Below are positions 20,160 through 55,293 of a DNA stretch of 64,000 nt, piece by piece. How positions within the stretch are numbered: the first letter of the stretch is position 1; the number at the start of each line of letters is the position of its first letter. A model generated the notes under the pieces. It saw only the letters and a list, made by a program, of their open reading frames with translations, was not told where the DNA came from and made no database searches. Position numbers and translations under genes: made by a program. Origin of the DNA: Alphaproteobacteria bacterium. GTDB lineage: Bacteria > Pseudomonadota > Alphaproteobacteria > UBA828. The stretch is taken from assembly GCA_965214705.1 (NCBI GenBank), contig OZ243972.1:3168001-3232000 (forward strand). Reading direction: 5' to 3'.

Positions 20160-20184
20160 TGCACTGTTCTCCTGCTTGCGTCGC

Positions 20185-31748: not shown

Positions 31749-33640
31749 GGCGCGACCCGCTCCAGAACCGTGACCGTGCCCTCGTTGCCGTCGACCTCGA
31801 CACGGTCGCCGGTCCGGATCGTCGCCGTCGCAAAGCCCACACCGACCACCGCAGGCAGCCCGTACTCGCGCGAGATAATCGCGGTATGGGCCATCATGCC
31901 GCCCACGTCGGAGACTGCCGCGCCAATACGGCCGAAGACGGTCGCCCAGCTTGGCGCTGTGATCCGGCAGACCAGGATCTCGCCCTCGTTGACGCTGTAG
32001 AGGTCTTCGGTGCGGGTAATCACACGGGCCGGACCGGTCACCTTGCCGGCGCACGCGGGCACGCCGCGCAGGACATCGCCGGCGGCGGCGGGATCGACCC
32101 CGAGCCACTCCTCGATCGTCTTTTCGGTGATACCCCAGAGCATGATGGTGATGGGCTCGGTGACGACCTCCGGCGGGGTTCCCAGCGCCGGCGGCGGCGT
32201 CCACTTGCAGAGCGAGTCCCGGATGCGCCGGCGCCGCTCGACGATGGGCCGCCAGTAGACCTCGCCGCGCGGCGGCGAGCCCGTCGCCCAGCCGATCAGC
32301 AGGTCGTAGAGCGCGTCATAGACCTCGTGGCGATGCAGGTAGAAGAGGTCCTCGCGGTCGTCGAGGAAGCCGTGGGCGACGAAGACATCCGCAAGCTCCC
32401 GCACCTTCGACCAGAAGATCGTGTGGTGCCAATGCTCGACGTAGAAGTTGTGGTCCTCGACGTAGGGAAAGACCTTGCAGGTGAGCGCGAGCAGGCCGTC
32501 GAACGCCTCGCGGTCCTGATCGGTGGGCAGCAGGGCGCGGTATTCCGCCGTCACCCGCTGCCGCTCCGCCAGCAGCCGCTCGAGCGGACGGCGGATGTCC
32601 TCGCCCCGCTGCAACGCCTCGACGTAGCCCCGCAGCGCGATGAAGGGCAGCCGCAGGTCGTCGATCCATACCGGATCCGAATGGTCGTAGCCGACGCCCG
32701 TGGAGAAGTGGAACCACGGCTCCTTCGCCGCCTCGAAGGCCTCCAGCCATTCGGCTCCGCCCGGTGCCTTCGCCATGGCCGCCAGCAGCGCGTCGGGGTC
32801 GTCGTGCTGCAGGACGATGCCGGCGAGGTTCCGCTCGACCGCCAGTTCGGCCAGCTCGCGCACCTTGTCGTCGGGCCGCAGCAGCAGGTTGTCGATGCCG
32901 CAGACGATTTGCGTCAGCGTGCGATCGGTGATGCCGGGAAACGCCCGCTGACAGAATTCGCGGAAGGTCAGGTAGGCGCCGTAGCCCAGGTTCAGCATCT
33001 CGAAATGGTAGGAGCCCATCTCGAGCATGTTCTCGATCAGCCGGTTGTAGGCGCTGAGCAGGTCGTGCGAGGAGTAGACGCCGCGGTGGCCGAAGACGTT
33101 CTCCTCGGGCTCCAGCTCCGGCAGCGGGCGGAACTCGATCTCGGTCAGGCGCGCGATGCAGTCCTTCGCCTTCTTGGCCCAGTTGCCGTAGATCTCGTCC
33201 CAGTTCTCGAAGTAATGGCCGGCGCGGCAGGTGAAGTGCTCGTTGCGCGCGGCGATCTGGTCTGGGTCGGTGACGCTGTTGGGGCTGACGTAGATGTAGC
33301 CGTTGACCAGCCGCTGATCGATGCCCATGGCGACCGGAATGGGCCAGACCCGGCTCGCCATCTGGCTGGCCGCCACCCACCAGTTCTCGGTCATGATGGT
33401 GTCGAAGGGATAGAGCGGCTCCGGGTTGTGCATCCCATCGAAGAACCAGAACTTTCCCTCCTCCATCGCGCGGCGTTCGTCGCTGATCAGGCAGTAATAG
33501 GGATATAGCTCCTCCCAGCCCTCGGCGCCGTCGGGCGTGGGCAGTTCGAACGGGCTCGGGAAGCCCCGGTTGAGGGGCGGCGTCGCCGCGGCCTCCGGGC
33601 CTGTCCCGGCGCTCTCGGGTGTGTCACTCATACGTGGCAC
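31745..33640 (-). CDS. PEP-utilising phosphohistidine subunit (PpsA/CreH-like)
   Basis: C-terminal swivel domain GGMMAHTAIISREYGLPAVVG; no pyruvate-binding domain. Confidence 0.88.
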   Translation of the reverse strand: MPRMSDTPESAGTGPEAAATPPLNRGFPSPFELPTPDGAEGWEELYPYYCLISDERRAMEEGKFWFFDGMHNPEPLYPFDTIMTENWWVAASQMASRVWPIPVAMGIDQRLVNGYIYVSPNSVTDPDQIAARNEHFTCRAGHYFENWDEIYGNWAKKAKDCIARLTEIEFRPLPELEPEENVFGHRGVYSSHDLLSAYNRLIENMLEMGSYHFEMLNLGYGAYLTFREFCQRAFPGITDRTLTQIVCGIDNLLLRPDDKVRELAELAVERNLAGIVLQHDDPDALLAAMAKAPGGAEWLEAFEAAKEPWFHFSTGVGYDHSDPVWIDDLRLPFIALRGYVEALQRGEDIRRPLERLLAERQRVTAEYRALLPTDQDREAFDGLLALTCKVFPYVEDHNFYVEHWHHTIFWSKVRELADVFVAHGFLDDREDLFYLHRHEVYDALYDLLIGWATGSPPRGEVYWRPIVERRRRIRDSLCKWTPPPALGTPPEVVTEPITIMLWGITEKTIEEWLGVDPAAAGDVLRGVPACAGKVTGPARVITRTEDLYSVNEGEILVCRITAPSWATVFGRIGAAVSDVGGMMAHTAIISREYGLPAVVGVGFATATIRTGDRVEVDGNEGTVTVLERVAP

Positions 33641-34083: not shown

Positions 34084-34737
34084 ATGAGCGCCTCGAAACC
34101 ATCCTCGCAGGCGAAGGGGAACAGCCGGGAGCCTCGGCTTCGCGCGCTGGCGGAGGGCGAGCCCGCGCCGGTCATGGGCCTGCGCCAGGTCGGGATGGCG
34201 GACCTGCAGGGCGATGCGGTCGCCCCTGCCTCGATCCCTCATATCGAAGGGCTTAACCGGGAGATCGTCGCCCTGCTGCAGGAGGACGGCCGGACGCCGT
34301 TCTCCAGCATTGCGCGCACGCTGGGCGTCTCGGAAGGGACCGTGCGCTCCCGTGTGGGCCAGATGCACAAGGCCAACCTGATCCACTTCATCACGGTGGT
34401 GAACCCGCTGGCGCTGGGCTACACGGCCTGGTCGATGCTCGGCATCAAGGTCGCCCGCGGCGCCAGCGCCCATGAGGTGGCGTCCCACTTCCGCGATCGG
34501 CCGGAGGTCGTCTATGTCATGCGCGTCGCCGCGCGCTTCGACCTGCTGGCTGAGGTGGTGTGCGGCTCGCCCGACGAGCTGCGCGAATTCCTCGATGACC
34601 ATTGCTACGGCTCGGACGACATCGCCCAGGTCGAGCCGATGATGGGGCTGGGCCTCTACAAGAGCCTGTTCAAGTGGGACAAGCCGCTCGGCGCCGGCGA
34701 TGGCCGCGGCAAGTCGGCCGGACGCAGCAGCCGGTAG
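34084..34737 (+). CDS. Lrp/AsnC-family regulator
   Basis: LQEDGRTPFSSIARTLGVSEGTVRSRV HTH plus RAM domain. Confidence 0.9.
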   Translation: MSASKPSSQAKGNSREPRLRALAEGEPAPVMGLRQVGMADLQGDAVAPASIPHIEGLNREIVALLQEDGRTPFSSIARTLGVSEGTVRSRVGQMHKANLIHFITVVNPLALGYTAWSMLGIKVARGASAHEVASHFRDRPEVVYVMRVAARFDLLAEVVCGSPDELREFLDDHCYGSDDIAQVEPMMGLGLYKSLFKWDKPLGAGDGRGKSAGRSSR

Positions 34738-34774
34738 CGGCCAACGCATAAGAAGAAAGGGGAGACCAACCGCC

Positions 34775-36010
34775 ATGAGCAAGCGCCGCATCATGCCTAC
34801 CGGACACTGGGACTGGAGCATGCCGGTCACGCTCTCCCAGGGCTGGCGGCTGGGCGATCTGGTCGTGGTCGGCGGCCAGATTTCGGCGGATGATAAGGGC
34901 CGCACGGTCGGCGGCGACATCGAGACCCAGACCCGCAACATCATGGAGTTCATCGGCCGGGTGTTGCGCGAGTCGGGCGCCGACTTCGGCGATGTGGTGA
35001 AGCAGAACGTCTACTACGTGGTCGATGACGAGAGCCCGCCGGCGGACGAGATCGTGCGGCGCATCGACGCGGTGCAGGCCGAGTATTTTGCGGCGCCGGG
35101 CCCAGTCACGACCGAGACGCCGGTCTCCGGCCTCGCCTACGAGGGGCTGCTGCTGGAGATCGACGCCTTCGCCGTGGTGGGTGCAAACAAGCGCCCGCTC
35201 ACGCCCGAGGGCCACTGGTCGCGTGGCAACGGCATCGCCTGCGTCCAGGGCTGGCAGGCGGGCGACTGGGTCTTCGTCGGCGGCCAGCGCTCGCTCAACG
35301 GAGACGGCTCGCTCAGGGATGCCGGCGACATCGCAGCCCAGACCCGCAATTGCTTCAACGGCATGGCGGGCGTCCTTGCCGAGGCCGGCGCCTCGATGAA
35401 CGACCTCTTGCGCCTCAACACCTACTACCGGCACGAGACCGCGGGCGCCGACGTGACCGCGTTCTGGGAGGCGCTGACTCGGGTGCGCATGGAGCACCTG
35501 CCGAACCCGGGGCCCGCCGGCACGGGGCTCAGGGTCAAGGATTTCTCTCATCCGGGCGAGCTGATTCAGATCGAGGGCGTTGCTCATCTCGGCCAGGAGC
35601 GCCGGCGCATCATGCCGGCAGGCCACTGGGACTGGAGCATGCCGGTACCCTTCTCCCAGGGCTGGCGGGTCGGCAACGTCGTCTTCGCGGGCGGTCAGAT
35701 CTCCGCCGACCGGAAGGGGCGGACGGTCGGCCCCGGCGACATCGCCCAGCAGACCGAGAACGTGTTCGAGAGCCTGATCGCGGTGCTGGGCGAGGCCGGC
35801 GCCGAGATGAGCGACGTGGTCAAGCTCAACACCTATTACCAGTACGACGACGGCAGCGCCTCGCCCACGGAGTACTGGGAGAAGATGACCGAAGTGCGGC
35901 GGCGCTACTTCCCGCCGCTCGGGCCGGCGGCGACGGCGGTCCGCGTGGACGGCTACGCCTTCGAGGACCTGCTGATCGAGATCGAGGCAATTGCCGTGGT
36001 GGGCGAGTGA
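34775..36010 (+). CDS. Three-domain RidA/YjgF-family protein
   Basis: Three repeats of GH/W..QGW..GGQ..DI..QT..EI[DE]. Confidence 0.88.
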   Translation: MSKRRIMPTGHWDWSMPVTLSQGWRLGDLVVVGGQISADDKGRTVGGDIETQTRNIMEFIGRVLRESGADFGDVVKQNVYYVVDDESPPADEIVRRIDAVQAEYFAAPGPVTTETPVSGLAYEGLLLEIDAFAVVGANKRPLTPEGHWSRGNGIACVQGWQAGDWVFVGGQRSLNGDGSLRDAGDIAAQTRNCFNGMAGVLAEAGASMNDLLRLNTYYRHETAGADVTAFWEALTRVRMEHLPNPGPAGTGLRVKDFSHPGELIQIEGVAHLGQERRRIMPAGHWDWSMPVPFSQGWRVGNVVFAGGQISADRKGRTVGPGDIAQQTENVFESLIAVLGEAGAEMSDVVKLNTYYQYDDGSASPTEYWEKMTEVRRRYFPPLGPAATAVRVDGYAFEDLLIEIEAIAVVGE

Positions 36011-36059: not shown

Positions 36060-36941
36060 ATGGCCCAGGGACAAGCCGGGGGCTCACCGCCGTCCGATGC
36101 GAATGCGCATCCGGGCGACACCGCTCCCGCGCCGGTCTTCAAGCCGCCCCGCCAGCCCTTCCTGGAGGTGCTCGGCTCGCTCACGCAACGGCGCACCGTG
36201 GTGCTGGGCGTCGCGGGCGTCATCATCTTCTTCGCCGTCTGGGAGGTCGCCCACTACGTCACGCCCGAGGAGAAGCAGCGCTTTCTGCCCGCCGTCGAGC
36301 AAGTGGTGGCCGAGATCGCCTTTCTCTTCGCCGAGAAGAACTTCATCGCCGATGTCGGTACCAGCCTCTACCGCATCTACGCCAGTTTCTTCGTCGCCAG
36401 CCTGATCGCCGTGCCGCTCGGCGTCTTCATGGGCTGCTTCGTCAAGGCACGCGCGCTGATCAGCCCCACCACGGGGGGCTGGCGCTATCTGCCGGCGGCC
36501 TCCTTCGCGCCGCTCCTGCTGGTGTGGTTCGGGCCCACCGACTTCGCCAAGATGGCGCTGCTCTTCCTCGGCTGCTTCTTCTTTCTCGTGGCGCTGATCC
36601 TCGACAACACGCTCGCGGTCCAGCGCGAGCTGATCGAATCCGGCCTCACCATGGGGGCCAAGCGGCGGCAGGTGGTGGGCATCACGTTCCGGGCCGCCGC
36701 ACCCGCCATCCTCGATTCCATGCGCAACATGATCGCGGTCGCCTGGACCTACCTGGTGATCGCCGAGATCATCGTGGCGACCGACGGCATCGGCGCGGTG
36801 ATGATGCGGGCCGCGCGCTTCCTCCACGTCGACATCATGATGGGCGGCATCCTCACCATCGGCGTGCTCGGCGTGCTGACCGACATCACGTTCCGCATCG
36901 CGAGCCGGCTGCTCTTCCCGTACCTGCGGGTCAGGCGCTAG
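36060..36941 (+). CDS. ABC permease (TauC/SsuC type)
   Basis: AWTYLVIAE..ATDGIG. Confidence 0.88.
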   Translation: MAQGQAGGSPPSDANAHPGDTAPAPVFKPPRQPFLEVLGSLTQRRTVVLGVAGVIIFFAVWEVAHYVTPEEKQRFLPAVEQVVAEIAFLFAEKNFIADVGTSLYRIYASFFVASLIAVPLGVFMGCFVKARALISPTTGGWRYLPAASFAPLLLVWFGPTDFAKMALLFLGCFFFLVALILDNTLAVQRELIESGLTMGAKRRQVVGITFRAAAPAILDSMRNMIAVAWTYLVIAEIIVATDGIGAVMMRAARFLHVDIMMGGILTIGVLGVLTDITFRIASRLLFPYLRVRR

Positions 36942-36952
36942 GAGGCGGCGGG

Positions 36953-37798
36953 ATGGCGGTCTTCGGCTTGGGGAGAACGGCGGCGGCGCAGGCGGGAGCG
37001 AATGCCCCGGTGCCGGGCACGCCCCCGTTGCGCGCCAACCGGGTCACCAAGAGCTATCTCAAGGGCAGCGTGATTGCTCTCGACGACGTTTCCTTCGACG
37101 TTCATGCCAACCAGGTCACGGCGATGATCGGCCCGTCGGGCTGCGGCAAGACGACGATGCTGCGGCTGATGGCGGGCCTCGAATACCCCTCGCGGGGCGA
37201 CGTGACCATGTTCGGCCAGCCGATCATGGGGCCGGGGCCGGAGCGCGGCATGGTGTTCCAGGCCTACACGTCTTTCCCGTGGCTCACGACGCGGGCCAAC
37301 ATCGAGTACGGGCTGAAGCTCCAGGGGCTTGCGAAGGCGGAGCGGCGCGAACGCGCCGAGCACTTCCTCGAGCTGGTTCATCTGGAGGGGTTCGCCAATG
37401 CCTATCCGGCCGAGCTATCCGGCGGCATGAAGCAGCGCGTCTCCATCGCGCGCACGCTGGCGCAGAACCCGGCGCTGCTGTTGCTGGATGAGCCCTTCGG
37501 CGCGCTCGACGCCCAGGTCACCTGGGAAATGGAGGAGATGATCATCGAGATCATCGAGCGTGAGAACAAGACGGTGGTGGTAGTGACCCACGACATCCAG
37601 GAGGCGATCTACCTCGCCGACAGGATCATCTTCTACACACGGCAGCCGGGGCGGATCAAAGCCGACCTCCCTATGGCGTTCAAGGAAGGCCGCCGCTTCC
37701 GCAAGAAGGAGGAGATGCTCGTGCATCCGGGCTATGTGGACATGGAGCGGCGGCTCTACGCGATGATGCGCGAGGAAATCCGGGGGCGGGTCAGCTAG
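36953..37798 (+). CDS. ABC ATPase (TauB/SsuB type)
   Basis: GPSGCGKT, LSGGMKQR, DEPFGALD. Confidence 0.9.
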   Translation: MAVFGLGRTAAAQAGANAPVPGTPPLRANRVTKSYLKGSVIALDDVSFDVHANQVTAMIGPSGCGKTTMLRLMAGLEYPSRGDVTMFGQPIMGPGPERGMVFQAYTSFPWLTTRANIEYGLKLQGLAKAERRERAEHFLELVHLEGFANAYPAELSGGMKQRVSIARTLAQNPALLLLDEPFGALDAQVTWEMEEMIIEIIERENKTVVVVTHDIQEAIYLADRIIFYTRQPGRIKADLPMAFKEGRRFRKKEEMLVHPGYVDMERRLYAMMREEIRGRVS

Positions 37799-37841: not shown

Positions 37842-38882
37842 ATGCTGTGGCGAACATCCATCATAACACTGGCGGCCTGCGCGCTCGCGTTCGGCGTCGT
37901 CAGTGCCGCGAGCGCGAAGGACACCGTCCGGGTCGCGCACTTCAGCTGGCCGGGCTACGGCTTCCTCCATATCGCCAAGGCGAAGGGCATGCTGCCCGAG
38001 AACATGGACCTCGAAATCTCGATCATCGAGGACCCGGTGCAGAGCATGGGCCTGCTCGCGAGCGGCCAGCTCGACGTCGTGACCAGCACCATCGAGTTCG
38101 GCCCGATCGCGCTAGCCGAGGACATGCCGGTGAAGCTGCTCGGCCTCACCAATCTCGGCAACGGCTCGGACCGCATCATCGTGGGGCCCGACATCAAGGA
38201 GCCGGGGGATCTCAGGGGCAAGAAGGTCGGTGTCATCGAAGGCGGGCTTTCGCAGATCTACATGGCGATCTGGCTGGAGCAGCAGGGCATCAAGTGGGAC
38301 GAGGTGGAGATGGTGAACCTCTTCCCGGATGCCGCCGCAGCCGCGATGATCGCGGGTCAGCTCGACGCCGCCGAGCTCTGGGACCCCTACGGCCCGCAGG
38401 TGCTGGAAGAGCTCGCGGGCTCGCGCGAGATGAGCCATTCCGGCGAGGAATACTGGCTCAAGGAAGGCCTGATCGCCGACGCGATCTTCGTCTCCGACGC
38501 GTTCATTGCGGAAAACCGCGACCTGCTGGTGGCGCTGATCAAGTCCCGCTACGAGGCGGTCGAGTGGTGGCGTCAGAACCCCACCGAGGGCAATGAAATG
38601 ATCGCCGGGATCCTGCAGTGGGGCGTGCCGGACGTGGAGCCCATCCTCGGTGGCGTGAACAACCCCGACGACGGTACCCTCTACATGTATAGTCTGGAGG
38701 AATCGGCGCAATTCTGCGGCGTTGCCGAGGGCGAGCCGCCCTTCGGCCAGCGCAACGGCCAGCTCGCCGACCATTGGGAGCTCACCAACAAGTGGTGGTT
38801 GACCTTTGGCCTGATGACCGAGACGGTCGCTCCGGCGGAGGGGATCGATTGCTCGATCCTCAAGGACGCGCTCGGCGGGTAA
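37842..38882 (+). CDS. ABC substrate-binding protein (SsuA/THI5-like)
   Basis: Signal peptide, WPGY, DLRGKKVG, WDPY. Confidence 0.85.
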   Translation: MLWRTSIITLAACALAFGVVSAASAKDTVRVAHFSWPGYGFLHIAKAKGMLPENMDLEISIIEDPVQSMGLLASGQLDVVTSTIEFGPIALAEDMPVKLLGLTNLGNGSDRIIVGPDIKEPGDLRGKKVGVIEGGLSQIYMAIWLEQQGIKWDEVEMVNLFPDAAAAAMIAGQLDAAELWDPYGPQVLEELAGSREMSHSGEEYWLKEGLIADAIFVSDAFIAENRDLLVALIKSRYEAVEWWRQNPTEGNEMIAGILQWGVPDVEPILGGVNNPDDGTLYMYSLEESAQFCGVAEGEPPFGQRNGQLADHWELTNKWWLTFGLMTETVAPAEGIDCSILKDALGG

Positions 38883-38951
38883 GGTTGGGGTGCGGGCGGC
38901 GTCATCGGGGCGCTGCCCGTATCGCCCGGTACGGACCAGGGAGACGATCGA

Positions 38952-40472
38952 ATGGCGCTGCTTGAGATGCACGAATGGTACGACCTCGCGCGGGATACCA
39001 ACTGGACTCCCGGCTACGTCGCCGAGGAGGAGATCTTTCCGCCCGAACTCAGCGATCCCTACGGGATTTCGGTCGAGCAGTGGGAGACCTTCGACGAGCC
39101 CTACAAGGTCTGCTACCGGGACTATGTCGAGACCCAGCGCGACAAGGACATCGGCGCCTATTCGGTGAAGTCGGCGCTGGCGCGCGCGGACTTCTTCAAG
39201 AAGGCCACACCGCACTGGAAGGCGCTGCTCGCGCTGCACTTCAGCCCGATCGGCTTCGCCGAATTCCACTCGGCGTCCGCCTTCGCGCGGATGACCCGGT
39301 TCAGCCGGGCGCCGGGTATGCGCAACATGGCGACCTTCGGCACGCTGGACGAAATGCGTCACGGCCAGATCCAGATGTATTTCGCCTACGAGTTCATCAA
39401 GCAGGACCGCGTCTTCGATTGGGCGCACAAGTCGTCCAAGACCGAGAACTGGATCATCATCAGCCTGCGTCATGCGCTGGACGACATCGAGCACACGCGC
39501 GATGCGATCAGCGCCGCGATCATGACCAACTTCGCCTTCGAGCAGGGCTTCACCAACCTGCAGTTCATCGGCCTCTCGGCGGACGCCGCCAAGGCCGGCG
39601 ATCACACCTTCGCCACCATGCTGCAGAGTATCCAGACCGACGAGGCGCGCCATGCGCAGATCGGCACGCCGCTCATCAGCATCATGATCGAGAACGGGCG
39701 CAAGGCGGAGGCGCAGCAGCTGGTCGATATCGGCTTCTGGCGCATCTGGAAGCAGTTCTCGGCGCTCAGCGGCATCTCCATGGACTACTACACGCCGCTG
39801 GAGTTCCGCGAGCACTCGCTCAAGGAGTTCATGCACGAGTGGGTGGTCGATCAATTCGCCCGCAACATGAAGGCGATCGGCCTCGACCTGCCCTGGTACT
39901 GGGACTACTTCCTCCACGATATCGAGACCTTCCACCATTGCCAGCAGATCGGCATCTACGTCTACCGCGCGACGCAGTGGTGGCGGCCCATCGCCTGCGT
40001 CTCGCCGGCCGAGCGCGACTGGCTGGAGGAGAAGTATCCGGGCTGGAACGACACCTACGGCAAGTGCTGGGACGTGGTGATCGACAATATCCGAGGCGGC
40101 CGCTTCGAGAAGACGGTGCCCGAGGTGCCGCCGCTGATCTGCAACATGTGCGGGCTGGAGGTGACCGGGATTGCGGGCGTCGGGCGCCAGGTGAACGGCC
40201 GCACATGGAACGCGACGAACTTCCACCTCGATCACGAAGGCCGGCGCTATCACTTCTGCTCCGAGCCCTGCAAGTGGGTCTTCGAGCTGGAGCCCGCCCG
40301 CTACCAGGGACACCGCAGCATCATAGACCGGTTGCTGGACGGCACCGTGCCGCCCGGCCCCGACGGCTTCTATGAGTACATGGGCCAAAGCTTCGAGGAA
40401 CGCGGCGTCTGCGGCTACGACTATCAGTGGGTCGACGGCTACGACGTGCCGCGCGCCGCGGCGGCGGAGTAG
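38952..40472 (+). CDS. Soluble diiron monooxygenase hydroxylase alpha subunit (TmoA-like, YHS tail)
   Basis: WYDLARDTNWTP, DEMRH, FEQGFTNLQF, DEARH, FCSEPCKW. Confidence 0.93.
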   Translation: MALLEMHEWYDLARDTNWTPGYVAEEEIFPPELSDPYGISVEQWETFDEPYKVCYRDYVETQRDKDIGAYSVKSALARADFFKKATPHWKALLALHFSPIGFAEFHSASAFARMTRFSRAPGMRNMATFGTLDEMRHGQIQMYFAYEFIKQDRVFDWAHKSSKTENWIIISLRHALDDIEHTRDAISAAIMTNFAFEQGFTNLQFIGLSADAAKAGDHTFATMLQSIQTDEARHAQIGTPLISIMIENGRKAEAQQLVDIGFWRIWKQFSALSGISMDYYTPLEFREHSLKEFMHEWVVDQFARNMKAIGLDLPWYWDYFLHDIETFHHCQQIGIYVYRATQWWRPIACVSPAERDWLEEKYPGWNDTYGKCWDVVIDNIRGGRFEKTVPEVPPLICNMCGLEVTGIAGVGRQVNGRTWNATNFHLDHEGRRYHFCSEPCKWVFELEPARYQGHRSIIDRLLDGTVPPGPDGFYEYMGQSFEERGVCGYDYQWVDGYDVPRAAAAE

Positions 40473-40481
40473 GCGCGTATC

Positions 40482-40742
40482 ATGGCCGACATCCCGCTCG
40501 CCGTGCTGCTCGAAGGCGACTACGGCTACAAGGTGCAGGTCTTCGACACCGGCGACACCATGGCGGTGCTGGCGGAGAAGGTCGCCGACCAGGTCGCGGG
40601 CGTCCTGGTGGCGTCGTTCCCGCCCGAGGCCGTCCTCAAGGTCCGCGTGCAGGGCAGCGCAGACCCGTTGCCCGACGAGCTGACCATCGCCGACGCCGGC
40701 TTCGTCGAGATGGAATCCGTGGAAATCTACCGCGCCGGCTGA
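40482..40742 (+). CDS. SDIMO gamma subunit (TmoB-like)
   Basis: PL...EGDY, DTM..LA, ubiquitin-like size; follows alpha. Confidence 0.85.
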   Translation: MADIPLAVLLEGDYGYKVQVFDTGDTMAVLAEKVADQVAGVLVASFPPEAVLKVRVQGSADPLPDELTIADAGFVEMESVEIYRAG

Positions 40743-40773
40743 GCAGGCCACGGCGGGTAAGGAGACGTCGAGC

Positions 40774-41067
40774 ATGACGACGGCAGACGACGCCGGCAAT
40801 CTCGTGGGCCCGGTGATGCGCGCGGGCGACATCGCCGATGCGGTGCTCGAAGCGATCCAGGAGGACAACGAGGGGCGCGAGGTCATCACCGAGGAACACG
40901 CGTCCTACATCCGGATCAAGGTCGCGGACGAGTGCTTCGTGCGCTTCGAGACGGTGGGCGACGTGCTGGGCCGCACGGTCACCCGCGGCGACATCGAGGC
41001 GAACATGCCGAGCTTCGCAGGGTTCATTCGCACCGAACCGGACGGCATCCGGTTCGTCGCGCGCTAG
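40774..41067 (+). CDS. SDIMO effector/coupling protein (TmoD/MmoB/DmpM)
   Basis: NLVGPVMRAGDIA..AI.EDN, YIRI, SFAG.I. Confidence 0.9.
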   Translation: MTTADDAGNLVGPVMRAGDIADAVLEAIQEDNEGREVITEEHASYIRIKVADECFVRFETVGDVLGRTVTRGDIEANMPSFAGFIRTEPDGIRFVAR

Positions 41068-41078
41068 GGAGTACGGAC

Positions 41079-42068
41079 GTGGCGGTCGAAGTCAAAGGCA
41101 TGAAGACGTGGAGCGGCCTCGCCGAGAAGCGGCGGCGGCCCAGCGAGTACGAAGTCGTCACTACCAATCTGCAGACCCGCACGCGGCACCCGGATCAGGC
41201 CTACGAGCTTTCGCCGGCGCCGGACCTGGGGATGAACGAATTCTACAAGCAGAACGTCTCGGAGAGCCCGTTCCAGCACCCGGACTGGGAGGGATATCGC
41301 GACCCCGACGAGATGATCTACCGCGTCTACACGCGAATTCAGGACCAGCAGGAGCAGTACGTCGACGGTCTGCTCGACGAGCACAACGAGATCGGCCACG
41401 ACGCGACGCTCAGTGACGCCTGGCTCGACGCGCTGGAGCGACTCTACACGCCCCGACGCTTCCTGCAGATGGCGCTGCAGATGGGCGCGGCCTATCTGGT
41501 GCAGATTGCGCCCGCGAGCACGATTACGGCCTGCGCCGGGTTTCAGGACGGCGACGAGTTTCGCTGGCTTTCCCGCTGCGCCTACCGGGCGCGCGAGCTG
41601 CAGCGCGCGCATCCTTCGCGCGGCTTCGGCCAGACCGAGCGCCGCACCTGGGAGGAGGAGCCCGCCTGGCAGGGCTTCCGCGAGTTGCTGGAGAGGACGC
41701 TCTCCACCTACGACTGGGGCGAGCACTTCGTGGCGCTCAACCTGGTGGCGAAACCGGCGGCGGACGAGGCGCATCGCCAGCTCGGCCGCGTCGGGCGGCG
41801 CTTCGACGACGGTCTGCTCGGGCTGCTAGCCGACAACCAGATGCGGGACAGCGAGCGTTCGCGGCGCTGGAGCGCGGCGCTCGTCGCCTTCTCGCTGGAG
41901 AACGAGGCGAACGCCGCCGTCCTCAGCGGCTGGATCGAGAAGTGGATGCCACTCGCGCGCCAGGCGGTCGATACCTATTGCGGCGCGCTGCCGGAGCAGG
42001 ACGACGCAGCGGACGCCACTCTCGCGGCAGTCGAGGCCTTCCACCGGAGCCTCGGTCTCGACGCTTAG
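41079..42068 (+). CDS. SDIMO hydroxylase beta subunit (TmoE-like)
   Basis: KTWS.L..RRRPSEYEVVT, DWEGYRDPD, YDWGE.FVALNLV.KP. Confidence 0.92.
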   Translation: MAVEVKGMKTWSGLAEKRRRPSEYEVVTTNLQTRTRHPDQAYELSPAPDLGMNEFYKQNVSESPFQHPDWEGYRDPDEMIYRVYTRIQDQQEQYVDGLLDEHNEIGHDATLSDAWLDALERLYTPRRFLQMALQMGAAYLVQIAPASTITACAGFQDGDEFRWLSRCAYRARELQRAHPSRGFGQTERRTWEEEPAWQGFRELLERTLSTYDWGEHFVALNLVAKPAADEAHRQLGRVGRRFDDGLLGLLADNQMRDSERSRRWSAALVAFSLENEANAAVLSGWIEKWMPLARQAVDTYCGALPEQDDAADATLAAVEAFHRSLGLDA

Positions 42069-42095
42069 GGCGATTCCGCCTTCGGCGGAAACGCC
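42068..42095 (+). terminator. Hairpin immediately after the SDIMO operon
   Basis: GGGCG-A-TTCCGC-CTTCG-GCGGAA-A-CGCCC. Confidence 0.55.
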
Positions 42096-42253
42096 CACGC
42101 CATTATTCGCTCACGGCAGCCGGCCGTCGCGCGAGTCAGCGCGCCTATGGGCGCGACGACCGGCGCCTCCGCGAGGGCGCCGCATAAGCGGCGGGCCGCG
42201 GTCGCGGCCTGTCGCGAACCCGTCGAAGACGGGTTCGCTCCCGCCCTACGCCC

Positions 42254-42943
42254 TCACCACGGGATGATCGTGCGCTCGGGCGCGTGCCAGAAGGCGGGCT
42301 GAGCGCCGGGCTCGGCAGGCTCGACCTGATCGATGCGCTCGATCAGGGCGGCGGCGGCGTCCTCCGGCGGGCGTGCTTCCTGGCGTTCGTCGTCGAAGGT
42401 CATGGCGGTCGCGACCATGCCGGGGTGCAGGACCACCGCGGCGATGCCGCGCTTCCCAAGATCGTGGGCGAGGTTGACCGCCACCATATTGGCCGCGCAC
42501 TTGGAGACGCGATAGCCGTAGAGCCCGCCCGAGCGGTTGTCGCCGAGCGAGCCGATGCGGCTGGTGATGAAGGCGACCGTCGACCCCGGCTTCAGCCGAC
42601 CCAGCAGGGCCTCCGTCACACGGAGCGGACCCAGCGTGTTGACCTCGAACTGCCGGCGGATGGCGTCGTAGTCGAGCGCGCCCAACTCGTCGCGCGCGGC
42701 AATCCCGGCGTTGTTGATGAGCAGATCGAGCGTCGTGCTGGAGTCCGCGAGCCGCTCGGCAAGGCCTTGCACCGCATCGTCGGAGGTCACGTCCACGCCG
42801 GGCTCGACCCTGATGCCGAGCGCCCGCAGCTCGTCGGAATCGCCCAGACAGGCCGCGATGACGGCGTCGCCGCGTGCGTGACAGGCGCGGCAGAGCGCGT
42901 TGCCGATGCCGCGATCGGCGCCCGTGACCAGAACGGTGCTCAC
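42254..42943 (-). CDS. SDR oxidoreductase (C-signal/CsgA-like)
   Basis: TGADRGIG, NNAG, YRVSK, LHPG. Confidence 0.88.
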   Translation of the reverse strand: MSTVLVTGADRGIGNALCRACHARGDAVIAACLGDSDELRALGIRVEPGVDVTSDDAVQGLAERLADSSTTLDLLINNAGIAARDELGALDYDAIRRQFEVNTLGPLRVTEALLGRLKPGSTVAFITSRIGSLGDNRSGGLYGYRVSKCAANMVAVNLAHDLGKRGIAAVVLHPGMVATAMTFDDERQEARPPEDAAAALIERIDQVEPAEPGAQPAFWHAPERTIIPW

Positions 42944-42973
42944 GGCACAGCCTGCCGCCCCGGCCTGCGTCGT

Positions 42974-44989
42974 TCAGGCGACCCGGAGCGTCGGCTGCTC
43001 ATTGCGCGCCTGCCCCGGCACCTCCCAGTGGGCCGCGGTGCGGCGGCGCAGCATGTCGCGGAACTGCCGGGTGGTGTTGGGTAGAAGCTCGCCCGTGCCC
43101 CAGTCCACGATCACGCCGTACTGGCGAATCAGGTCGAGCGCGTCGAGCTCCTTGCTGCGGTACTTGGCTGCGATGTCCTCCGCATCCACGTCGAGCCAGG
43201 CGTGGCGCTGGGTGCGGATGCGCTCGCGCTCAGCCGCGGTCGCTGCTTCATCCACCTCGTATTCGGCGAGGTCGGCATCGATCTCGCGGACCACGACGCC
43301 ATAGTCCTTCTTCGCCCGCTCGATGGAGACGTAGCCGTCGGCCACGTCCTCGCACACCGTTGCGGGATCGCGCGTGAGGGGGTCGCCGAGCCCGCCGCCG
43401 CCGGCCGACGGCCGGGTCACGGTGTCGCCGGCCTCCACCGGCACGCCCGAGAAGATCGAGCCCAGGTAGCGTTCGCCCTGCGTGCCGGGATTGACCCAGA
43501 CCCCGTGCGGAATCGACGGCAGCCCGCCCCAGAGCCCCCAGGTCACCGAGCGCTCGCGGTCGCAGCAGTAAGAGACCACCGAGCGCTCCGCCTTGGTGAG
43601 GATCGCGCCCTTCTCGACGCCGAGGCCGCCGCGCGAGTTGCCGGGCCCGCCGGAATCGACGATGAGCTCGTGGCCGGTGGTCAGCACCGGGGCGAGCCGC
43701 TCCTGCCCCTCGAAGGGCTGGGTGCCGAGCTGGACGCCGAAGACCGGCCCGGTGGCGCCCCAGCCGTCGCGGCCGTTGCGCGCGCCCCAGCCGCCCACCA
43801 TCCAGTCGTACCACATGAAGTAGGGGCGGTCCTCCTTGCGGCCGTCGCGCCCGCCGATCAGCAGGTACTCGAGGTTGAAGGTGCAGGCCATGGCGCGCTC
43901 GGGCAGGATTTCGGCCCAGAGCTCGAACACCGAGTTCATGATCTTCTCGAACGGGCCCGAGCAGAAGCCCGCGACAGGCGTCGGCCAGTCCGCGTTGACC
44001 ACGGTGCCCTTGGGTCCGAGATCGACCGTGACCACCCGGTAGAAGCCGGAGTTCAGCGGGATGTCGGGCGATTGCATCTTGGTGCCGGCGACGATGGCCG
44101 CGAAGGCGCCGCCGTAGCAGCAGTTGAGGAAGGTCGAGATCGTCTTCGGGTGCGAGCCGGAGAGATCGTAGTGCACGCTGTCGCCGTCGATGGTCATCTT
44201 GATGCGGATCGGGATCAGCCCCTCGCCGGCGACCGGGTCCACGTCGATGTAGTCCTCGGTCTCCCACACGCCGTCGGGCAGCCTGGCGATGCGCTGGCGA
44301 GTCAGCGTCTCCACGTAATCCTGCACCTCGGCGAAGGAGGTCTGGATCACGTCGACGCCGTACTTGTCGCAGAGCCGGCCGACCTCCCGCTCCGCGACGT
44401 TGCAGGCCTCGGCCTGGGCCTGGAGGTCGCCGATGATGTCGGCGGGCGCGCGGGTGTTGTTGGCGATCAGCTCCGCCACGTCCGAGAGGTACTCGCCCTT
44501 GCTGTAGACCCGTACCGGCGTGATGCGGAGCCCCTCGGCCATGTGGTCGAGCGCGCTCACGTTGAACGAGCCCGGCACCGCGCCGCCGACATCGGCCCAG
44601 TGCCCGTTGGCCTGGGAGAAGCCGAGGTGGATGCCCTTGTAGAAAATGGGGCGGACGATGCGCGTGTCGTTGAAGTGGGTGCCGCCCTGGTAGACGTCGT
44701 TCACGACGAAGGTATCGCCGGGGTGGATGTCGTCGCCGAACTTGTTGATGACGGCCTGGGCGGTGTAGTGCAGCGTGCCCACGTGGGCGGCGATGTCGCC
44801 CGAGCCCTGCATGATGGTGTTGCCTTCGGTGTCGCAGATCGCCGAGGAAAAATCCCGCGACCAGATCACGAAGGAGTAGCAGGTGCGGAAAATCTGCTCC
44901 GCCATCTGGTCGACGATGTTGACGTAGGCGTTCTTGAGCACCTCGAAGGTCACGGGGTCGAGCGTGTAGCCTTCTCCGTTCTTGCTCAT
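42974..44989 (-). CDS. Hydantoinase B / oxoprolinase / carboxylase-family subunit
   Basis: LDPVTFEV, GGTHFND, HWADVGG, GGGGLGDP. Confidence 0.92.
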   Translation of the reverse strand: MSKNGEGYTLDPVTFEVLKNAYVNIVDQMAEQIFRTCYSFVIWSRDFSSAICDTEGNTIMQGSGDIAAHVGTLHYTAQAVINKFGDDIHPGDTFVVNDVYQGGTHFNDTRIVRPIFYKGIHLGFSQANGHWADVGGAVPGSFNVSALDHMAEGLRITPVRVYSKGEYLSDVAELIANNTRAPADIIGDLQAQAEACNVAEREVGRLCDKYGVDVIQTSFAEVQDYVETLTRQRIARLPDGVWETEDYIDVDPVAGEGLIPIRIKMTIDGDSVHYDLSGSHPKTISTFLNCCYGGAFAAIVAGTKMQSPDIPLNSGFYRVVTVDLGPKGTVVNADWPTPVAGFCSGPFEKIMNSVFELWAEILPERAMACTFNLEYLLIGGRDGRKEDRPYFMWYDWMVGGWGARNGRDGWGATGPVFGVQLGTQPFEGQERLAPVLTTGHELIVDSGGPGNSRGGLGVEKGAILTKAERSVVSYCCDRERSVTWGLWGGLPSIPHGVWVNPGTQGERYLGSIFSGVPVEAGDTVTRPSAGGGGLGDPLTRDPATVCEDVADGYVSIERAKKDYGVVVREIDADLAEYEVDEAATAAERERIRTQRHAWLDVDAEDIAAKYRSKELDALDLIRQYGVIVDWGTGELLPNTTRQFRDMLRRRTAAHWEVPGQARNEQPTLRVA

Positions 44990-45011
44990 TGTCTCTTCCT
45001 CGCTCTCTGCA

Positions 45012-47066
45012 TCAGCCTTCGGCCTGCGGAATGTGCATGACGATGGTGTGCCAGGGGTCGACCTCGGCCTTGAGGCCGGGCGGCACCAGCACCGTGGAAT
45101 CGAGCTGCTCGATGATCGCCGGCCCTTCGACCACCGCGCCGGCGTGCAGGGCGTCGCGGTCGTAGATGGGCGTCATGATCGCGTCAGGCGCCTCGTCGAA
45201 GACCACCGGCCGCTCGGTCTCGGGCGCCGGCGCCGAGCGGTCCATCTCTTCCCTCGCGAACTCCGCCTTCTGCGAAAGCCCGGTGGCGGTGACCGTGAGG
45301 CGGTAGATCTCGACCGGCGCATCGGGCCTGGAATAGTTGTGCTCGCGGCCGTGCTCCTCGTGGAACTGGGCGATCGCCGCATCCAGCGAGCCGGCAGTCG
45401 CGTCCACCTTGATCGACATGGAGCGCCACTGGCCGAGGTAGCGCATGTCGACGAAGCGCTCGAACTGCATGCGGTCCTCGGTCACGCCCTCGTGTAGGAG
45501 CCGCTCGCGGCCCTCGTCCTCCAGCGTGCTGAAGGTCTGCTCGACCTCCTCGATCTTCGCATCGTCGGTAGAGCGCAGATACATCTGCGACATGTCGTGC
45601 TTGATATCCACCAGCAGGCAGCCGAGCGCGGAGGTGACGCCGGGGTTCGGCGGTACCAGCACGGTCGGGATCGAAAGGTCGCGGGCGAGCGCCACGCCAT
45701 GCAGCGGCCCGGCGCCGCCGAACACTGTCAGCGCGAAGTCGCGCGGGTCGTAGCCCCGCCGGATCGAGACCAGGCGCACGGCGTCCGCCATGTTGGCGTT
45801 GGCCACCTGGAGTATGGAGACAGCCGCCTCCTGCACCGTGAGCCCGAGCGGGTCGGCGATGCGGCGCTTGATCGCCTCTTCGGCGAGCGAGCGGTCCAGG
45901 GTGACGGCGCCGCCCGCGAGCCTGTCGCTGATGCGGCCGAGGACGATGTTGGCGTCGGAGTTGGTGGGCTCCACGCCGCCCCGGCCGTAGCAGGCGGGAC
46001 CGGGCGACGAGCCTGCCGACTGCGGGCCGTTGCGGAGCGAGTTGGCCTCGTCGATCCAGGCGAGCGAGCCGCCGCCCGCGCCGATGGTCAGCACCTCGAT
46101 GCTAGGGAAGCAGATCGGGTAGCCGTACTGCACGTACCAGTCGGTGGTGACCCGCAGGTTGCCCCGGTCGCAGAGCGAGACGTCGGTGCTGGTGCCGCCC
46201 ATGTCCAGGCTGATCGAGTTCTCGTAGCCAGCGAGCTGGGCGACGAAGCGGCTCGCGATGGCGCCCGCCGCGATGCCAGAAGCGGCGAGCCGGGCCGCGA
46301 ACTTGGACGCCGTGCTCTCGGTCATCACGCCGCCACCGGAGTGCAGCAGCAGAATGTCCTCTTCGTAGCCGCCTTCGCGGAGCCGCGTGGCGAGGCGCCC
46401 CACGTAGTCGCCGGCGACCGGCGCGAGCACGGCGTTGGCCACCGTCGTCGAGAAGCGCTCGTGCTCGAAGATCTCGGGCATGATCTCGCTGGAGAGCGAG
46501 ATGGAGGCGCCGGGGACTTCCTCTTCGAGGATGTCGCGCATGCGGCGCTCGTTCTCGGGATTGGCGAAGGCGTTGGCGAAGCAGACGGCGATGGTCGTCA
46601 CGCCGCGCTTGTTGATGATGCGGGCGGCCTCCCGCGCCTCCGCCTCGTTCACCGGCTCGATGACCGCGCCGCTGTAGTCGATGCGCTCGCTGACCACCAG
46701 GCGGTTGCGGCGCTGGATGTAGGGCGGCGCCATCTCCTTATAGGTGTCCCACAGGTCGTCGCGGGTGCCTCGGCGGATCTCGATCACGTCGCGGAAGCCC
46801 TTGGTGGTGACCATGATCGCGGGCGGGAAGTTGCGCGTGATCAGCGCGTTGGTGGCGAGCGTGGTGCCGTGAGCGAAGAGCACCATGTCCTGGAGGTCCA
46901 CCCCGCCGGCCCTGATGCCCTCCAGCACGCCGTCGATGGGGTCGGGCGTCGTCGGGGTCTTGGCGACGCGCATCTGGCCGGACGCTTCGTCTAGGACGCA
47001 CACGTCGGTGAAGGTGCCGCCGACATCACACGCGACGCGAACGGCCGCCCTCGACACGTCATTCAT
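45012..47066 (-). CDS. Hydantoinase A / oxoprolinase family subunit
   Basis: DVGGTFTD, DMGGTSTD, GAGGGS, FGGAGPLH. Confidence 0.92.
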   Translation of the reverse strand: MNDVSRAAVRVACDVGGTFTDVCVLDEASGQMRVAKTPTTPDPIDGVLEGIRAGGVDLQDMVLFAHGTTLATNALITRNFPPAIMVTTKGFRDVIEIRRGTRDDLWDTYKEMAPPYIQRRNRLVVSERIDYSGAVIEPVNEAEAREAARIINKRGVTTIAVCFANAFANPENERRMRDILEEEVPGASISLSSEIMPEIFEHERFSTTVANAVLAPVAGDYVGRLATRLREGGYEEDILLLHSGGGVMTESTASKFAARLAASGIAAGAIASRFVAQLAGYENSISLDMGGTSTDVSLCDRGNLRVTTDWYVQYGYPICFPSIEVLTIGAGGGSLAWIDEANSLRNGPQSAGSSPGPACYGRGGVEPTNSDANIVLGRISDRLAGGAVTLDRSLAEEAIKRRIADPLGLTVQEAAVSILQVANANMADAVRLVSIRRGYDPRDFALTVFGGAGPLHGVALARDLSIPTVLVPPNPGVTSALGCLLVDIKHDMSQMYLRSTDDAKIEEVEQTFSTLEDEGRERLLHEGVTEDRMQFERFVDMRYLGQWRSMSIKVDATAGSLDAAIAQFHEEHGREHNYSRPDAPVEIYRLTVTATGLSQKAEFAREEMDRSAPAPETERPVVFDEAPDAIMTPIYDRDALHAGAVVEGPAIIEQLDSTVLVPPGLKAEVDPWHTIVMHIPQAEG

Positions 47067-47172: not shown

Positions 47173-48051
47173 CTAACACTTGAGGATGGGGCGGGCGTTC
47201 TTGCCGGCGATGGCGGGGCGGAGCGCGCCCCACGCGTTGAACAGAGCCTCGTGAGCCTGCCAGGTTTCGTGGCTCAGGATGCGGACGATCACCAGGTTGC
47301 CGATGCGGGTGACGCCGGCCTCGGTGCCGTCCACGCCTTCGATCGCCTCGTGCACGTCGTCCTCGACATCCGGCGGCAGATCAGGCGCGTAGCCGAACGC
47401 CATTGCCATGTGCAGCCGGCCGAGCCAGAGCCGCTGCAGCGCGGCGATAGTCTCGGGCGTGGTCGCCACCAGGCGGTCGAGAGCGACCAGGCGGCCGCCG
47501 ATGACGATGCGGAACTCCGAGACCAGATGGTGGAAGCGAAAGACCTCGCCGTCGCCGTAGTGCACGCGGCCGGCCGAGACCATGTCGGTGGCGAAGAGCC
47601 GGGACGAGGGCTCCAGCGCGATCCGGTTGATCCGGTGCACCCGGCTGCGGGCGAAGGGGATCGCCTCGTCCGGGCAGAACTCCAGCAGCGCATTCTCGCC
47701 CACGTGGAGGTCCACGATCTCGCGCGAAATGGCGCCGCCGGGGCACTTGTAGAACTTGCTCGACGCGGTGGTGGTGAAGAGGGCGCGGGTGCCGGGCTCC
47801 AGCACGCCGTGGAAGTGCGAGACGTCGCCCTCGACGAAGCCGCCGCCGCTGTTCACCAGCAGCATGAACGGCTGGTCGTCGTGGTCCTGGTAGTGGTAGC
47901 CCTGCCACTGGAAGGGAATGCGCCAGCAGAGCGGGTCGATTTCCGTGCGCCCGAGCCTGCTCGACGCGCGGACGTTCATCAGCGCGTACTTACCGACGAT
48001 CCATTCGGGATCAGGCTGTACCGGCGCGCTGCTCGGCTCCGTCATGCCCAT
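47173..48051 (-). CDS. ureD: Urease accessory protein UreD
   Basis: [33 protein letters not shown]. Confidence 0.85.
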
Positions 48052-48655
48052 CCATCAGGAGAACGTCGCGCTCGATCCAGGCGATCACCTCGGCAAGGCC
48101 ATCGCCGGCGCGCAGGTTGGTGAAGAGGAAAGGCCGCGTGCCCCGCATCTTCCTGGAATCGCGCTCCATCACGCCGAGGTCGGCGCCTACCATCGGCGCG
48201 AGGTCGATCTTGTTGATGACCAGCAGCGGCGACTTGGTTATGCCGGGTCCGCCCTTGCGCGGGATCTTGTCGCCCTCGGCCACGTCGATCACGTAGATGT
48301 AGCTGTCCACCAGCTCGGGGCTGAAGGTCGCCGCGAGATTGTCGCCGCCGCTCTCGACGAAGACGATGTCGAGGTCGGGATGCAGCGCCGCCATCTCCTC
48401 GATGGCGTGGGCGTTCATCGAGACATCCTCGCGGATCGCCGTGTGCGGGCAGCCGCCGGTCTCGACCCCGGCCACGCGCTCGGGCGCGATGGCGCCCGAC
48501 TTGATGACGAACTCGGCGTCTTCTTTGGTGTAGATGTCGTTGGTGATGGCGGCCAGCGAATGGTTCGGCCCCATGCTGCGGCAGAGCGACACCAGCAGCG
48601 CCGTCTTGCCCGACCCCACCGGCCCGCCGATGCCGATCCTGACCGGCTTGCGCAT
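48011..48655 (-). CDS. ureG: Urease accessory GTPase UreG
   Basis: [27 protein letters not shown]. Confidence 0.97.
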
Positions 48656-48730
48656 CCACAAGTCTCCCCGTTTTCCTGCGTCTAACGTCGCGTTTCCGAA
48701 ACGAAAGAGTAGAGTGCTCCCGTCCCCGTC

Positions 48731-48822
48731 TCGTCATGGCCGGGCTTGACCCGGCCATCCACTCGCGCATCCCGGTCTTGCTTGGACCGACTGGATGCCC
48801 GGATCAAGTCCGGGCATGACGA
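48731..48822. repeat. Alphaproteobacterial palindromic intergenic repeat (REP/REPIN-like)
   Basis: TCGTCATGGCCGGGCTTGACCCGGCCATCCA ... TGGATGCCCGGATCAAGTCCGGGCATGACGA. Confidence 0.8.
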
Positions 48823-48872
48823 CAGGAGGTCGATGGCACCCGTGCGCATTTTCAAGACACGACGCCAGACTA

Positions 48873-50052: not shown

Positions 50053-50076
50053 GCGTGCCGTCGCCTCCGCCGCCCC

Positions 50077-51783: not shown

Positions 51784-51806
51784 GCTCTGGCTCCCTGCTC
51801 CTGCCC

Positions 51807-52313: not shown

Positions 52314-52338
52314 GGCTGTTCTCCACGCTTGGCCCGCG

Positions 52339-55198: not shown

Positions 55199-55293
55199 AT
55201 TGCCCCGGCGCTGGCGGCCGGCATAATGCCGGCCGCCCCGCCCTGCCCCGCGGCGGGGCGCCGGCACGTAGCAGCGGGAGCGGATAGGGCGCC

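Follow-up and report, generated by a model that had tools for sequence, protein, structure and literature searches.

How is a toluene-monooxygenase-type enzyme supplied with electrons when its operon encodes neither a ferredoxin nor a reductase? The question is raised by a 64,000-nucleotide stretch of the genome of an alphaproteobacterium of the UBA828 lineage (GenBank assembly GCA_965214705.1, contig OZ243972.1, positions 3,168,001 to 3,232,000), hereafter the window. At 38952-42068 it carries four co-directional genes in the order alpha-gamma-effector-beta, which by their Pfam families encode a group-1 (toluene-type) soluble diiron monooxygenase (SDIMO). The usual description of a group-1 SDIMO is a six-gene operon, and searches for such genes often demand the full set. 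Our analysis confirmed that the shortened operon is a real, conserved feature, a known enzyme type in a variant gene organisation. Judged from the sequences, the intact hydroxylase most likely runs on the single TmoC-like ferredoxin and the single TmoF-like reductase of its genome, a reading that we hold with moderate confidence.

The operon and its missing genes

The G+C content of the window is high (61-72% per 2-kb step). Genes were called by GC3 and named by Pfam; 54 open reading frames (ORFs) were scanned for families, and selected genes were also compared with NCBIfam. The alpha subunit gene (alpha1; 38952..40472, on the plus strand like the rest of the operon) encodes 506 residues with the Pfam families Phenol_Hydrox (3e-70) and YHS. 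The diiron ligands E104, E134, H137, E197, E231 and H234 are all present and lie in invariant alignment columns, their numbering having been checked against TouA of ToMO; the two iron motifs read LDEMRHG (E134, H137) and TDEARHA (E231, H234). The best PDB matches are TouA (2e-187) and T4moA (9e-179), that to phenol hydroxylase being far weaker (3e-35). A TmoB-type gamma subunit of 86 residues (40482..40742; Pfam TmoB 3.2e-17), an effector or coupling protein of 97 residues (40774..41067; Pfam MmoB_DmpM 7.7e-21) and the beta subunit (beta1; 41079..42068; Phenol_Hydrox 1.4e-58) follow. The beta1 ORF was listed from 40932; translation probably begins further in, at the in-frame GTG at 41079, which GGGAG precedes, or at the ATG at 41100. 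The order alpha-gamma-(ferredoxin)-effector-beta with a TmoB-type gamma and an MmoB/DmpM-family effector, ferredoxin aside, is that expected of a group-1 SDIMO.

The site at which relatives have the Rieske ferredoxin gene is reduced to a 31-bp gap between gamma and effector (40743..40773) that holds an AAGGAG ribosome site. No Rieske ferredoxin gene occurs in the operon or the window, all 20 Rieske matches of the genome lying elsewhere. Nor is there a Fer2-FAD-NAD reductase gene at the operon end, where a GC-rich 12-pair hairpin directly 3' of the beta stop codon (42068..42096, plus strand; fold of -31.1 kcal/mol over 42060-42130, z -2.5) is followed by a convergent gene for a short-chain dehydrogenase/reductase (SDR; 42254..42943, minus strand). 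A terminator scan of 38700-42400 gave 0 sites and the hairpin has no T-run, so it is not established as a terminator. The initial annotation, made from the DNA letters alone, had described the gene order, four intact genes with both DExRH motifs, the gap without tmoC, and the hairpin with its convergent gene, and in all of this it was correct.

For alpha1, gamma1, effector1 and beta1, the ratio of nonsynonymous to synonymous substitution (dN/dS) against five relatives is 0.06-0.33, at dS of 0.12-0.48; all four are under purifying selection.

Relatives and the loss of the ferredoxin gene

A scan of one genome per species gave 80 related loci, whose genes were typed by tblastn with SDIMO parts. 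A locus was considered untruncated if at least 1200 nt followed its last SDIMO gene, as in 70 cases. A ferredoxin gene occurs in the gene chain of 60 of these 70 and a reductase gene in 32, leaving 38 without one. A reductase encoded outside the operon is common, and the ferredoxin-less operon is the rarer case (10/70).

The ten untruncated loci without ferredoxin comprise the seven nearest relatives of the window (94-98% alpha identity) and loci L045, L099 and L060. L045 and L099, also ordered alpha-gamma-effector-beta, lie outside the window's clade and have no ferredoxin gene in the available stretch; L060 has one in a divergent neighbouring cluster. The seven close relatives, which are all the complete ones, share the alpha-gamma-effector-beta layout and come from different species representatives. 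With L030, which is cut after gamma, the ferredoxin-less group consists of loci from eight GTDB species representatives, of which seven run past beta.

An alpha tree was built by a quick method, with SH-aLRT support only, and rooted on two phenol hydroxylase alphas. Its 65 rows hold 59 of the 80 loci, the second alphas of L060 and L062, the genome's own two alphas and the two outgroup sequences; the 21 loci left out are, for the most part, near-duplicates of canonical operons from beta- and gammaproteobacteria, together with three cut loci. The window falls in a clade of nine ferredoxin-less rows (support 99), eight of which have the alpha-gamma-effector-beta layout, the ninth being the cut L030. 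The sister group (support 100) has seven rows, six carrying ferredoxin and one (L038) cut after alpha. Next outward are L032 and then L042, L043, L051 and L041, all with ferredoxin, completing a clade of 21 rows (support 100). In the ferredoxin-bearing rows of this clade the gene lies between gamma and effector, or in L032 between gamma and beta.

Because the ferredoxin-less rows nest inside a clade whose other rows carry ferredoxin, the simplest reading of the tree is a single tmoC deletion in the ancestor that a set of closely related species have in common. The initial annotation had asked whether relatives share the gap, and the answer divides: close relatives also lack the gene, but wider relatives keep it. 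Its alternative of a recent loss likewise holds in part. Relatives with alpha identities of 59-76% do have tmoC, but eight species representatives share the loss, and the remaining genes have stayed under selection.

Dispersed genes elsewhere in the genome

The genome (7.92 Mb; contamination estimate 8.7%) is in three contigs, here C1, C2 and C3, with the window operon on C1. Its SDIMO parts were inventoried by whole-genome tblastn with the genome's own parts and those of three complete operons (L041, L048 and L082) that had been checked with Pfam. The inventory holds two alpha, two gamma, two effector and two beta genes, and exactly four Phenol_Hydrox matches were found by Pfam.

A second, partial cluster lies on C3 (locus L025, C3:1526000-1545999, at about 9878-12548 therein), between an IS110 transposase gene upstream and bolA downstream. 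It reads alpha2-gamma2-ferredoxin-effector2, without beta and without reductase, and alpha2 is 53% identical to alpha1. The same truncated layout occurs in seven untruncated loci (L049, L080, L088, L094, L101, L105 and L106) and in two others, L068 and L100, whose sequence is cut directly behind the effector. The second beta gene stands alone at C1:2677665-2678657 by tblastn, within an ORF of 358 residues at 9585-10661 of locus L026 (C1:2668000-2687999), next to thiolase, enoyl-CoA hydratase, acyl-CoA dehydrogenase and FAA-hydrolase genes. In a beta tree, beta2 clusters (support 99) with betas encoded in the operons of L072, L085 and L052, relatives of the alpha2 type, and the position of beta1 agrees with that of alpha1 in the alpha tree. 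By this placement the lone beta2 is the predicted cognate beta of alpha2. Each hydroxylase has its own alpha, beta, gamma and effector, and the ferredoxin and the reductase are single.

The ferredoxin of the C3 cluster (C3:1537880-1538212) is a TmoC-like Rieske protein (Pfam Rieske) of 111 residues with intact CPH...C..H ligands. It scores 110-142 bits in tblastn, the next Rieske match in the genome reaching at most 53 bits, and its best PDB match is T4moC (3e-36), dioxygenase ferredoxins following at 1.5e-16 or weaker. The reductase is a lone TmoF-like gene on C2 (357106-358104) with Pfam domains Fer2, FAD_binding_6 and NAD_binding_1 and best PDB match T4moF (5e-52). At E<=1e-3 it is the only match in the genome for three TmoF-type queries (38-40% identity), and it is flanked by an alpha/beta hydrolase gene and a gene of no family. 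The initial annotation had itself named a dedicated pair elsewhere in the genome as an outcome that would refute its idea, and this is the outcome of the genome-wide search, with one TmoC-like protein (C3) and one TmoF-like protein (C2).

The dispersed set is conserved. Five close relatives with the ferredoxin-less operon (G001-G005) each have one ortholog of the lone reductase (77-93% identity) and one ferredoxin (91-100% identity), which in all five adjoins alpha2. Four of them have exactly four Phenol_Hydrox matches in the same layout. G003 has six, and its extra pair belongs to an alpha-gamma-beta cluster divergent to alpha2-gamma2-ferredoxin-effector2, at locus L060. All the dispersed parts of G003 lie on one 4.15-Mb chromosome, so the dispersed set does not depend on the contamination estimate. 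Among five more distant genomes without an in-operon reductase, three had reductase matches at 30-36% identity; G006 and G010 had none at E<=1e-20, which is not evidence of absence.

At this locus (OY763937.1, 5259-10843), the third cluster of G003, alpha-gamma-beta, has neither ferredoxin nor effector, and the two divergent halves of the locus are arranged as if they shared parts.

Electron supply

We propose that alpha1, beta1 and gamma1 form, with the effector, a working enzyme of an uncharacterised subgroup of group-1 SDIMOs, whose own Rieske ferredoxin gene would have been deleted once in the ancestor of these closely related species. Electrons would pass from NADH to a TmoF-type reductase, then to a TmoC-type Rieske ferredoxin and on to the diiron centre. 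The partners would act in trans, and we infer that those reducing hydroxylase 1 are the ferredoxin of the C3 cluster and the lone reductase of C2. One ferredoxin and one reductase would then serve two hydroxylases, since the beta of alpha2 likewise stands alone, on C1. In all likelihood the mechanism is ordinary, with dispersed genes and electron carriers that are probably shared. The initial annotation had also placed the electron source in trans, and that part of it is supported, by ordinary cognate-type partners that are present in all five relatives; the molybdenum (Mo) hydroxylase that it named as a possible source is not.

Several observations weigh against this assignment. The C3 ferredoxin comes from the alpha2 lineage and shares only 37-55% identity with those of alpha1's clade, and its conservation is already explained by the need of hydroxylase 2 itself for a ferredoxin. 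The C2 reductase is on a long branch, and a tree that carried a long-branch warning did not place it with the ancestral operon of either alpha1 or alpha2. Its identity with the reductase that L132, a relative from alpha1's clade, encodes within the operon is just 35%, and among the 29 best matches of the C2 reductase outside the genus only three adjoin SDIMO genes (L119, L124 and L132). In NCBIfam the C2 reductase scores slightly higher as BenC (184 bits) than as MmoC (175 bits), both under the cut-offs, and it could mainly serve the genome's many Rieske oxygenases, to judge from the 20 Rieske matches.

In favour of the proposal, metatranscriptome contigs from RNA libraries of four studies match the binding-protein gene upstream of the operon and the alpha, gamma, effector and beta genes with 90-99% likeness; one contig bridges alpha and gamma, one gamma and effector with no ferredoxin gene between, and one effector and beta. 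These contigs are no proof of transcription, because DNA can be present in such libraries.

The alternative that survives best, though we consider it unlikely, is a three-component mode like that of the phenol hydroxylases and soluble methane monooxygenase (sMMO), in which a Fer2-bearing reductase would reduce the diiron centre directly with no Rieske ferredoxin. The C2 reductase does have an N-terminal Fer2 domain, and L045 and L099, outside the clade, also show the alpha-gamma-effector-beta order with no ferredoxin gene in the available stretch. Against these stand the retention of a ferredoxin gene by the other rows of the 21-row clade (apart from the cut L038) and by most untruncated loci (60/70), the TmoC-like ferredoxin in all five examined genomes with the ferredoxin-less operon, and a TmoB-type gamma and TMO-type (toluene monooxygenase) alpha that are unchanged. 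We know of no TMO-type enzyme that works without ferredoxin.

Slightly less probable still is a non-cognate partner, drawn from the remaining small Rieske ferredoxins or from other reductases that work with the genome's Rieske oxygenases. Three of the 20 Rieske-domain matches lie in short frames of 121-149 residues (at C3:2155836, C1:3966733 and C1:2199371), and two of the three are matched at 30-35% identity by the ferredoxin of L041, the nearest complete operon. With the same query, however, the short-frame proteins reach 50-53 bits and the C3 TmoC-like protein 110, and none of these other Rieske matches is in the window.

The proposal of the initial annotation was that the FAD and 2Fe-2S subunits of a Mo-hydroxylase pass electrons from the Mo-hydroxylase substrate to the SDIMO in a redox-neutral coupling. 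Two CoxLMS-type Mo-hydroxylase sets do lie 8-23 kb upstream in the window, the nearer accompanied by a CoxG/SRPBCC gene and a split pair of phosphoenolpyruvate (PEP)-utilising proteins, and in three of the five relatives an ortholog of the nearer set (90-93% identity) has the same position relative to the SDIMO module. The other two, G002 and G003, keep the ferredoxin-less operon without an ortholog of the large subunit, having only paralogs of at most 39% identity, none within 15-20 kb upstream. That only three of the five relatives with the operon have an ortholog speaks against an obligate link. TmoC and TmoF homologs of cognate type are present and conserved, and no case is known to us in which CoxM/CoxS subunits act on an SDIMO. 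We regard the coupling as highly improbable.

That the operon is an inactive relic of the tmoC deletion is equally hard to credit, even with a gene essential to the canonical six-gene set missing and mobile elements abundant (five transposase or integrase genes at 1390-9416 of the window, the IS110 transposase beside the alpha2 cluster), given four open frames with all iron ligands, the low dN/dS values and a layout common to all seven complete loci of the clade, from different species representatives.

Substrate and conserved neighbours

The pocket residues of alpha1 differ from those of TouA. Residues 100-107 read IGFAEFHS, as the initial annotation had stated, and TouA has IALEEYAA there; the T4MO counterpart is, we assume, IALGEYAA. 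Alpha1 has A for E of TouA at position 103, H for A at 106, S for A at 107, L for F at 176, E for M at 180 and H for M at 181. Positions 100, 103, 107, 176 and 180 are those that we take, from the literature on ToMO and T4MO, to line the pocket. S107 and H181 mark the whole 21-row clade, and E180 marks the window's group and the outer group.

The genes conserved beside the operon across 12 loci of the clade are a RidA gene, mostly with three domains (11/12), a polysaccharide-deacetylase/PuuE-like hydrolase (8/12), an ArgE/DapE-family deacylase (8/12) and an NMT1/SsuA-type binding protein (7/12). Agmatinase-like enzymes, an arylformamidase-like protein or an NCS1 permease occur in some of the loci. 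In the window, the set upstream of alpha1, all on the plus strand, begins with an AsnC/Lrp-type regulator (34084..34737; Pfam HTH_AsnC-type and AsnC_trans_reg), of a family that adjoins the SDIMO in 4 of the 12 loci. It continues with a protein of three RidA (enamine/imine deaminase) domains (34700..36010; Pfam Ribonuc_L-PSP three times, NCBIfam Rid family 1.6e-38 and RutC 1.5e-24) and an ATP-binding cassette (ABC) importer of the sulfonate/taurine type. The importer consists of a TauC/SsuC-like permease (36060..36941; Pfam BPD_transp_1, NCBIfam TauC 2e-28), an ATPase (36938..37798; Pfam ABC_tran, NCBIfam taurine/SaoA-type 7.5e-67) and an NMT1/SsuA-family substrate-binding protein (37842..38882; Pfam NMT1 1.9e-16, NCBIfam SsuA_fam 4e-28), the three NCBIfam matches being under the cut-offs. 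The deacetylase and deacylase have orthologs on C3 (77% identity) and C1 (54%) of the same genome, which suggests that the pathway is scattered too.

The pocket residues and the conserved neighbours together favour an imported polar compound containing nitrogen, and not a hydrocarbon, as the probable substrate, which lends indirect support to the polar substrate suggested by the initial annotation. Going further, we put forward tentatively, as a possibility with less than even chances, that the 21-row clade does not oxygenate hydrocarbons at all and catalyses the first step of a conserved pathway. Its substrate would be a polar ring compound rich in nitrogen (pyrimidine-, hydantoin-, imidazole- or pyridone-like) that the cell imports, and the step would be followed by deacylase or amidohydrolase steps and RidA-type deamination. 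In this lineage the pathway would be scattered over the genome, and one ferredoxin-reductase hub would be shared by two hydroxylases, or by three in one relative.

A possible alternative is an alcohol-to-ketone-to-carboxylase route, in which the convergent SDR downstream of the operon would act before the HyuA/HyuB pair that follows it. The SDR (Pfam adh_short) is nearest to IsoH-type dehydrogenases (NCBIfam IsoH 4.7e-83, 278 bits against a cut-off of 350) and is kept in all seven complete close relatives. Beyond it, also on the minus strand, are a hydantoinase B or caprolactamase-beta-like subunit (HyuB, 42974..44989; Pfam Hydantoinase_B 1e-146, NCBIfam CapB 2.7e-100, under the cut-off) and a hydantoinase A or caprolactamase-alpha-like subunit (HyuA, 45012..47066; Pfam Hydantoinase_A, Hydant_A_N and Hydant_A_C, NCBIfam CapA 1.4e-159, under the cut-off), a pair found in six of the seven. 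In NCBIfam the CapA (533 bits) and CapB (336 bits) matches, against a cut-off of 1000, outscore those to acetophenone carboxylase subunits, and no third small gene, such as the gamma gene of acetone/acetophenone carboxylases, lies between or beside HyuA and HyuB.

Two further observations concern these hydantoinase-type genes. The window has two SDR-HyuB-HyuA modules on the minus strand (19377-23792 and 42254-47066), with SDRs from different subfamilies; both HyuA/HyuB pairs have caprolactamase subunits as their best match, under the cut-off. In the Actinomadura/Pseudonocardia loci L054, L059, L063 and L064, which belong to a different TMO clade, hyuA-hyuB lies directly upstream of, and co-directional with, an alpha-gamma-ferredoxin-effector-beta operon. 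This is a second, independent link between hydantoinase-type and TMO genes.

Other genes in the window

The nearer Mo-hydroxylase set (26429-33640) consists of large, 2Fe-2S, CoxG/SRPBCC and FAD subunit genes. Directly after them comes a pair that resembles a split PEP synthase, made up of PPDK_N and a PEP-utilising mobile domain, the latter above its NCBIfam cut-off. The arrangement resembles the four-component 3-hydroxypyridine dehydrogenase clusters, for which PEP-utilising proteins are reportedly required. A crotonyl-CoA carboxylase/reductase gene (24071-25357; NCBIfam 545 bits against a cut-off of 379) separates the two Mo-hydroxylase sets. A pyruvoyl-type histidine-decarboxylase-like gene (13935-14873; Pfam HDC 1e-45, NCBIfam under the cut-off) adjoins a polyamine-type ABC importer and the second Mo-hydroxylase.

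The mobile-element run at 1390-9416, with two DDE_Tnp_1 transposases, an IS91-type Y2 transposase with a tyrosine integrase, and an IS1595-type transposase, separates the island from a truncated thiamine-pyrophosphate (TPP) enzyme gene (6-1175). On the other side of the operon, the genes at 47173-52650 and 53891-56205 are consistent with a nitrogen-scavenging island.

Implications

A conserved, selected hydroxylase can thus persist for long without ferredoxin and reductase genes of its own. Where complementary partial clusters occur in one genome, as they do here, surveys that look for operons count too few of these enzymes. Should a single ferredoxin indeed serve both hydroxylases, the system would be a natural test of ferredoxin-hydroxylase docking specificity. 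We consider the substrate of the clade a more interesting question than the electron supply. Its neighbours and polar pocket suggest that nitrogen compounds, not hydrocarbons, are the substrates of part of the large uncharacterised TMO diversity, and such a role would change the reading of TMO genes in metagenomes, including those of host-associated bacteria.

Comparison with known systems

The closest characterised systems are ToMO (TouABCDEF) and T4MO (TmoABCDEF). Alpha1 matches TouA and T4moA over its full length with the same iron-ligand numbering, and the gamma, effector and beta types and the gene order agree, missing genes aside. Unlike them, the window operon has no ferredoxin and no reductase gene, its pocket residues differ from those of TouA, and its neighbours are importer, RidA and amidohydrolase-type genes in place of aromatic ring-cleavage genes.

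The isoprene monooxygenase cluster (isoABCDEF with isoGHIJ, the latter for a CoA-transferase, the IsoH dehydrogenase and two glutathione transferases) is also a group-1 SDIMO, and IsoH is the best NCBIfam match of the window's SDR. The match is below the cut-off, however, and alpha1 is in another clade; among the 54 scanned ORFs Pfam detected no glutathione transferase or CoA-transferase, the isoGHIJ partners looked for. The three-component phenol hydroxylases and sMMO (groups 2 and 3) have no Rieske ferredoxin in their mechanism, a likeness to the window operon, but the window alpha is distant from them and its gamma is TmoB-type. For the kind of substrate, HpdABCDE, the 2-hydroxypyridine 5-monooxygenase of Burkholderia sp. 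MAK1, is reportedly a diiron monooxygenase acting on a polar N-heterocycle, and would be a precedent for the class of substrate proposed here.

Full-text literature searches returned no paper on TMO operons without ferredoxin, on SDIMOs of sponge symbionts or on any SDIMO linked with RidA. PMC13603553, in the parts considered here, treats complete operons only. In the corresponding parts of PMC11825192 (Yang et al. 2025), the six-gene order is the rule for group 1, partial or complementary SDIMO clusters are not discussed, and large uncharacterised subgroups are described from metagenome-assembled genomes (MAGs). Two of these, TMO subgroups A and B, are known only from genomes and MAGs, including those of Binatota, and have no experimental substrate, aromatic hydrocarbons having been suggested (PMC11825192). 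Our 21-row clade is similar in that a Binatia MAG (L043) belongs to it and none of its rows in the tree is a characterised enzyme, and we would guess, from those parts of the paper, that it is equivalent to subgroup A or B. It differs from what is described there in its conserved neighbours, which point to polar nitrogen compounds and not to aromatic hydrocarbons.

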